NCBI RefSeq assembly: GCF_030013205.1
Contig: NZ_CP122648.1
Reading direction: 5' to 3' (one strand)
DNA: 64,000 nucleotides
Source: Escherichia coli
Lineage (GTDB): Bacteria; Pseudomonadota; Gammaproteobacteria; Enterobacterales; Enterobacteriaceae
A program made the translations under genes and the position numbers. Below are positions 52,968 through 53,297 of the stretch, piece by piece (position 1 is the first letter of the stretch; each line of letters begins with the position of its first letter). The notes under the pieces are model-generated. The model was not told where the DNA came from and made no database searches. It saw nothing but the letters and a program-made list of their open reading frames with translations.

Positions 52968-53087
52968 TAGTCATTATTAATATCCTGCAGATGTGACCTA
53001 ACGACAAGCGTCGCCACGATGACAACTACGGAAAGGATGCCGATAACCCACCACATAACTTACCCGCGCAAAATGAATGGATAAAAA

Positions 53088-53297
53088 TCATCCGCTGATT
53101 GATCCTAATCTTTGCATATTTTTCGAAGATGTTACGTTTAGTGGGGCGAAAAAAGCAATTACAGCAATGCCACCTATCGACGTAAGTCCGAAAAAGCCAG
53201 GCTCAGGTCTGCCGCTAATTGGGTATTGATGGCTTACAAGGACTACAAGTGATGCGATAAGCCTGATCACGTCAAAGCAATTATGTCTGTTATTCAT
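53088..53297 (-). pseudogene. N-terminal remnant of an acyltransferase-3 family gene (O-antigen acetyltransferase-like)
   Basis: 69-aa ORF; FDVIRLIASLVVLVSHQ resembles the conserved N-terminal helix of acyltransferase-3 proteins; only ~120 bp remain downstream before the tailspike stop. Confidence 0.4.

Follow-up and report, generated by a model that had tools for sequence, protein, structure and literature searches.

Among described phage acyltransferases, the closest counterpart to the locus studied here is Oac of Shigella phage Sf6 (gene 15), an O-antigen acetylase of the acyltransferase-3 (AT3)-only type. It has 333 aa and ten helices, and its gene converges on the tailspike gene of this P22-like phage. 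The residues that are essential in Sf6 Oac are SG52-53, R73, R75, R76, FP78-79, RK110-111, GS138-139, WT141-142, GR269-270, SYG274-276, FPV282-284 and D333 (PMC3467182). AT3 proteins have an R/K-X10-H motif in TM helix 1, the invariant histidine of which is H25 in OafA, and an RXXR motif (R73/R75 in Sf6 Oac, R69/R72 in OafA) that is likewise essential in OafA (PMC7448272). A second point of reference is phage phiV10, which carries its oac gene (PhiV10p26) in the gap between the tail fibre and holin genes, and whose Oac protein is annotated as acetylating the O157 antigen and conferring superinfection immunity. Finally, exchange of receptor-binding domains between Lederbergviruses and Uetakeviruses is known, with anchors of 124 and 205 aa (PMC10408124).

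We analyzed a window of 64,000 nucleotides of Escherichia coli DNA (contig NZ_CP122648.1), which contains a defective prophage with a Uetakevirus (epsilon15/phiV10-type) backbone. Beside the tailspike gene of this prophage lies what is very probably the dead 5' stub of a serotype-conversion gene, left behind as the by-product of a tailspike module swap (Table 1). The remnant resembles Sf6 oac in that it converges on the tailspike gene, in that its product is 52% identical to the N-terminal 50 residues of Sf6 Oac, and in that the two share the R-X10-H motif of TM helix 1. Unlike the Sf6 gene, it comprises only 51 codons, is broken just before the position of SG52-53, and is found on a Uetakevirus backbone rather than in a P22-like phage.

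With phiV10 oac, the remnant has slot and orientation in common. Homology to the phiV10 backbone starts 32 nt upstream of phiV10's own oac, and in the window at 53327, 30 nt upstream of the stub's ATG, from where it continues onward. The proteins themselves, in contrast, have no detectable similarity, which speaks for different AT3 lineages in the same cassette position. The stub occupies the slot that separates the tailspike gene from the membrane-protein/holin genes, in a region that is collinear with phiV10, TL-2011b and ZX5, and also with four E. coli draft assemblies (L017-L020) that are described below. An earlier note on this DNA had considered the gene to be cargo of epsilon15/phiV10-type phages. 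This is borne out by the slot, which is that of phiV10 oac, but not by the gene in it, which is Sf6-Oac-like. The alignment to phiV10-like oac genes that the note had proposed brings up nothing: blastp finds no similarity to phiV10 Oac or TL-2011b Oac, and both were rejected as relatives of the remnant.

Table 1. Features of the tailspike-oac region, in window coordinates
Feature	Coordinates	Strand	Remarks
Tailspike gene, whole	50598-52967	+	Uetakevirus anchor plus putatively imported receptor-binding part
Putatively imported receptor-binding part of the tailspike gene	51317..52967	+	left crossover within 51269-51316
P22-like flank, 177 bp	52968..53144		P22-like phage intergenic DNA; would have arrived with the receptor-binding domain
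Read-through codons (18), PLNVTSSKNMQRLGSISG, plus stop	53088..53144	-	completes the 69-aa ORF; not AT3-derived
Right recombination joint, GGCGAAAAA microhomology	53145..53153		minus strand = oac codons 49-51, TTT TTC GCC
oac 5' remnant, codons 1-51	53145..53297	-	Sf6-type AT3 O-acetyltransferase; 153-nt DNA homology, protein and profile matches
Intergenic region, oac start to membrane-protein/holin gene	53298..53453		divergent; retained Uetakevirus backbone

Identity of the first 51 codons

The remnant lies on the minus strand, in an ATG-initiated ORF of 69 codons (53297..53088; translation MNNRHNCFDVIRLIASLVVLVSHQYPISGRPEPGFFGLTSIGGIAVIAFFAPLNVTSSKNMQRLGSISG), with the tailspike stop (52967) on one side and the holin cassette (53454) on the other. 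Positions 52968-53087 are downstream of the stop codon of this ORF, and the remaining two minus-strand frames between the tailspike and the holin gene are stop-rich. From the start of the ORF to the tailspike stop there are 330 bp, as compared with the ~1,014 bp that full-length relatives require, so that the available DNA is indeed too short for a full gene, as the earlier note had stated.

The same note had read the ORF as a truncated AT3 gene of the O-antigen acetyltransferase type, and PHROG, phmmer, tblastn and profile matches as well as intact 337-aa copies in the same slot all uphold this reading. The PHROG family phrog_3333 ('O-acetyltransferase') matches residues 1-50 (E=1.6e-6); Pfam Acyl_transf_3 aligns to residues 7-50 below threshold (i-E 0.12). 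In a tblastn search of 50,697 phage records, Shigella phage Sf6 oac was the only match (51-52% identity, E=1e-13). An exhaustive phmmer search of 1.84 billion representative proteins gave 235 matches at E<=1e-3, the best of which (E=1.4e-21) is a 351-aa protein with PF01757 that is 88% identical over residues 1-52. The 90% cluster of this protein includes 337-aa E. coli 'acyltransferase family' proteins, and the 337-aa E. coli acyltransferase P0151 is 94% identical to the first 51 residues. A custom profile made from 93 full-length relatives (346 positions) matches minus-strand frame 0 at E=1.9e-27, at positions 4-54 of 346 only, and stays at or below 0.8 bits in every other frame of 52900-53330. 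The phmmer and profile searches thus both find the similarity to AT3 N-termini on which the earlier note had staked its interpretation. NCBIfam gave noise only, and across NCBIfam, PHROG and Pfam the 69-aa ORF matches no family other than the AT3 N-terminus. A word-index homologue search with the 69-aa peptide found no match, the index being ill-suited to such a short query.

At the DNA level, homology to three independent full-length genes covers exactly the first 153 nt (53297..53145), with identities of 78% (L007), 77% (L015) and 88.9% (L017), and past codon 51 there is no homology to the full-length oac of any of the three. Significant sequence similarity to the AT3 family (PF01757) is likewise found for residues 1-51 only. 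The figure of ~69 remaining codons given in the earlier note is therefore right for the ORF, but not for its acyltransferase part, which ends at codon 51; codons 52-69 are unrelated DNA.

The 69-aa peptide has two hydrophobic segments (~aa 6-24 and 33-56), in line with the hydrophobic N-terminus noted before, rather than the ten-helix membrane domain of ~330-350 aa. The R/K-X10-H motif of TM helix 1 is present, with R12 and H23, in MNNRHNCFDVIRLIASLVVLVSH. The FFXISG motif of helix 2 is broken, with its 'FFA' kept: relatives have FFAISG (FFA-ISGYLITAS), and the window has FFA followed by PLN (FFA-PLNVTSSK). The RXXR motif is absent, there being no AT3-derived sequence past codon 51 in any frame, and every essential residue of Sf6 Oac lies beyond the break. 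Since the stub has two of ten TM helices and lacks the residues from SG52-53 onward, the product of the 69-codon ORF is, judged from its sequence, incapable of being an acetyltransferase, and could not acetylate O-antigen.

Intact comparators and the substituted block

Complete 337-aa acyltransferases that match PF01757 are encoded by E. coli prophages (P0151, P0153 and P0160; contigs L015 and L017-L023), in contrast to the 51 codons of the window stub. The tailspikes beside these genes bear receptor-binding domains other than that of the window. In P22-like phages (L015, L021-L023), the gene of the 337-aa oac family is convergent with the tailspike gene, as in Sf6. The contigs that encode P0151 come from the four draft assemblies L017-L020, and these share prophage backbone, gene slot and chromosomal site with the window. 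Their gene order is yfgH, yfgI, Rz, endolysin, holins, the full 337-aa AT3 gene, the convergent tailspike gene and Bro-N, with a gap of 24 bp between oac and the tailspike gene. Among 5,426 complete E. coli genomes there is no full-length copy at the DNA level, and when IMG/VR was searched for full-length relatives, the only match was a further copy of the stub.

L017 and the window are collinear, at 94% identity, on both sides of a substituted block (window 50145-51316 corresponds to L017 8834-7663, and window 53145-56366 to L017 5153-1935). Window positions 51317-53144 (1,828 bp) stand where L017 has 2,509 bp, made up of its receptor-binding domain, the spacer and codons 52-337 of oac. Of the codons in the retained 153 nt, 17 are not the same as in L017, and 14 of these 17 differences are synonymous; the divergence therefore arose in working genes and not in the course of long decay. 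Collinearity with L017, again at 94%, includes the intergenic region upstream of the remnant, where the oac promoter was presumably located; a simple scan for a sigma-70 consensus on the minus strand of the oac upstream region found none.

The substituted block is 98-99% identical to P22-like prophages. Within the tailspike, aa 1-221 are 82% identical to the anchor of Uetakevirus TL-2011b, and aa 216-789 correspond, at 98% identity, to aa 117-690 of a P22-like tailspike that has a head-binding domain. The 177 bp that follow the tailspike gene are 92-94% identical to post-tailspike DNA in the P22-like prophages L002 and L012, which are located at the lambda attachment site, beside ybhB/bioA (L012 is at 3356276-3361580 of the K_EC180 chromosome). 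There, the flank continues into a tI/sib hairpin of the lambda type, and then into the P arm of attP and the core GCTTTTTTATACTAA. Only 79 bp of the flank are left in a third P22-like context, and its distal ~60 nt are similar to the DNA 3' of humD in the P22-like contig L015. The flank is absent from the intact-oac prophage L017, and outside the stub-bearing prophages it was found only in P22-like prophage contexts. Because it is shared with P22-like prophages and with humD-flanking sequence, we consider it to be P22-like phage DNA.

The flank contains most of a hydrophobic 30-aa ORF (MWWVIGILSVVVIVATLVVRSHLQDINNDY; 53056..52964, minus strand) that overlaps the tailspike stop and is conserved in the P22-like copies except for one substitution. 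Neither the flank nor this ORF had a match by blastn against phages, in PHROGs, by tblastn or in Rfam, and the ORF has no relatives in PHROGs or phage records. Its position and a weak 'FYP' resemblance to the C-terminus of Sf6 Oac are what could be cited for an internally deleted oac of which both ends survive, with 52968-53144 as the degraded C-terminus. However, Sf6 Oac scores at most 14 bits against 52968-53144, at the DNA level the segment matches none of the 3' ends of the genes in L007, L015 and L017, and the full-family HMM gives at most 0.8 bits in all other frames. Moreover, the same 177 bp adjoin P22-like tailspikes that lack any oac 5' part. An internal deletion is hardly credible, and 52968-53144 was rejected as the C-terminal end of oac, as no AT3 C-terminal signal is present in any frame.

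Relative to the P22-like copy in L012 and L002, identity drops from ~99% over 51300-53080 to ~83% over the last ~64 nt of the flank (53081-53144). This suggests either later gene conversion between co-resident prophages, or a donor with another allele of the distal element. The receptor-binding domain, on the other hand, is 99.4% identical to that of the co-resident P22-like copy. Because of this difference between the flank end and the receptor-binding domain, either the donor was not the sampled P22-like prophage itself but a related one, or later homogenisation affected the receptor-binding domain. An intact gene for O-antigen modification is lacking next to the tailspike gene in both the window prophage and the L012/L002 P22-like prophage.

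Several further features were recorded in and around the window prophage. It has no terminase or portal ORFs, and its head/tail region has internal deletions. In the late region (~34500-39500), ~2.5 kb of the window maps in three pieces to 5.7 kb of phiV10 (6905-12643), and a 198-aa ORF (37795-38391) aligns to no more than the final third of a tail-protein profile of 552 aa. A segment of ~860 bp (49288-50144) is missing from the otherwise collinear L017 prophage, and may represent a moron that was acquired in front of the tailspike gene. An ORF located there (49395-50123, plus strand) codes for a hypothetical protein of 242 aa, in which a hydrophobic helix at the N-terminus is combined with a run of Cys-rich repeats (CxRC...WCxxC) at the C-terminus. 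Just outside the prophage end, an IS1 (56367-57134, InsA/InsB ORFs 56422-57119) sits in a yfgH-like glycine-zipper lipoprotein gene; it is missing in L017-L020, and its flanks overlap by ~8 nt, as expected for target duplication. Upstream of the prophage, there is a very long ORF of 2,680 aa (13479-21521, plus strand).

Recombination joints and the origin of the stub

At the left joint, parentage switches within 51269-51316, in a partly conserved 'GDALVxVKQPY' stretch: homology to the L017 backbone stops at 51316, and homology to L002 starts at 51269. At the right joint, a three-way alignment has P22-like sequence to the left of GGCGAAAAA and L017-type oac to the right of it. The recipient-like sequence at this joint is GGCGAAAAA itself (oac codons 49-51), and the donor-like sequence is GGCAAAAAA, the T-run of the lambda-type tI/sib terminator. 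The microhomology is short, at 9 nt, one of which is mismatched in the donor-like copy, and the joint falls within the oac FFXISG motif. What is demonstrated is the homology, the positions of the breakpoints and the existence of an intact comparator.

Together, the data suggest a model in which the ancestor was a Uetakevirus (epsilon15/phiV10-type) prophage with a complete 337-codon Sf6-type AT3 O-acetyltransferase gene, located on the minus strand between the tailspike and holin genes. We infer that a single event of recombination with a P22-like (Lederbergvirus) phage, with the latter as the donor, replaced 2.5 kb by 1.83 kb. The old receptor-binding domain, the 24-bp spacer and oac codons 52-337 would have been lost, and a different receptor-binding domain together with 177 bp of its 3' flank would have been gained. 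The left crossover was probably homology-assisted, by way of the short conserved stretch at the boundary between anchor and receptor-binding domain. The right joint, in contrast, would be illegitimate and microhomology-mediated, through the 9-nt GGCGAAAAA in the FFXISG motif. The outcome would be the present 69-codon ORF, in which 51 AT3 codons are fused to 18 foreign codons. As read from the alignments, the cause of the truncation is thus a module swap and not simple decay, the right-hand joint lying inside oac.

A history in two steps would yield the same final sequence as a single event. In this case, the receptor-binding domain and its flank would have come first, with a crossover at or beyond the 3' end of oac, and codons 52-337 would have been deleted later. 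The other deletions in the window prophage and the nearby IS1 insertion fit such a course. However, it takes two events where one is enough, and the ends of the P22-like and the oac homology coincide within ~10 nt, at a shared GGC(G/A)AAAAA. Moreover, neither the 5,426 complete E. coli genomes nor IMG/VR yielded an intermediate that combines this receptor-binding domain with an intact oac. We regard the two-step origin as improbable, and favor the single module swap.

The module swap would leave a pseudogene, whereas the ORF could also have been retained for a purpose. The fusion of 51 and 18 codons might be expressed from the retained oac upstream region and function as a selected small membrane protein with two helices, whose role might be interference with other AT3 enzymes, or modulation of the adjacent lysis cassette with its divergently transcribed holin genes. 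If true, such a function would account for the ORF being uninterrupted in every copy seen, across backbones that are ~2% diverged, and the upstream intergenic region has indeed been retained. However, the last 18 codons are P22-like DNA that is non-coding in other contexts, and the ORF resembles no family apart from the AT3 N-terminus. It is intact in all five sequence variants, the sole changes being G34C and P52Q, i.e. two non-synonymous and zero synonymous changes, which are too few for a selection test. PGAP places no gene here in any genome, and the upstream region yielded no promoter consensus. We consider a micro-protein with its own function very unlikely, and the reading as a dead stub is retained for the following.

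Distribution, consequences and comparison with published exchanges

Of the 5,426 complete E. coli genomes, 13 have the stub, as does one contig of IMG/VR. Because all of them have the same arrangement, it is not an assembly artefact. The P22-like flank without the stub occurs in 7 further complete genomes. The receptor-binding domain as such is present in 20 genomes, and its specificity is presumably for O139. The window is 100% identical to genomes of pig ETEC such as K_EC180, and the same stub is found in the O139:H1 strain P15-25. RefSeq/PGAP has no annotation at the interval of the 69-codon ORF in any genome that carries the stub, and we suggest that it should be flagged as an oac pseudogene. 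In particular, it should not be counted as serotype-converting when O-antigen modification is predicted from genomes of pig ETEC or O139 strains.

The earlier note had anticipated that loss of the gene would affect O-antigen modification and superinfection immunity, and our analysis leads to the same prediction. We infer that the prophage brings about no O-acetyl conversion of its host, and therefore no receptor-based exclusion of phages with the same tailspike. Ten of the 13 complete genomes with the stub also have a P22-like prophage with the same receptor-binding domain, which is consistent with, though no proof of, absent receptor-based exclusion. A new host-range module may thus cost a temperate phage its receptor-modifying immunity gene, in agreement with this co-residence. 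In itself, the stub is a commonplace pseudogene, derived from a familiar type of phage cargo gene, and its biological weight is modest; what is unusual is how well its origin is resolved. It would represent a case, resolved to the base, of a tailspike module that was swapped from a P22-like into an epsilon15-like phage and, as a side effect, destroyed the adjacent serotype-conversion gene.

The window tailspike conforms to the published exchanges between Lederberg- and Uetakeviruses, in which each genus conserves its anchor, while receptor-binding domains are common to different genera (PMC10408124). Its junction, at ~aa 216 in the window protein and at aa 117 in the P22-like protein, is near the ends of the published 205-aa and 124-aa anchors (PMC10408124). 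Unlike the published exchanges (PMC10408124), the swap in the window would also have transferred 177 bp of DNA from the 3' side of the tailspike gene and, by its right joint, destroyed the neighbouring conversion gene.
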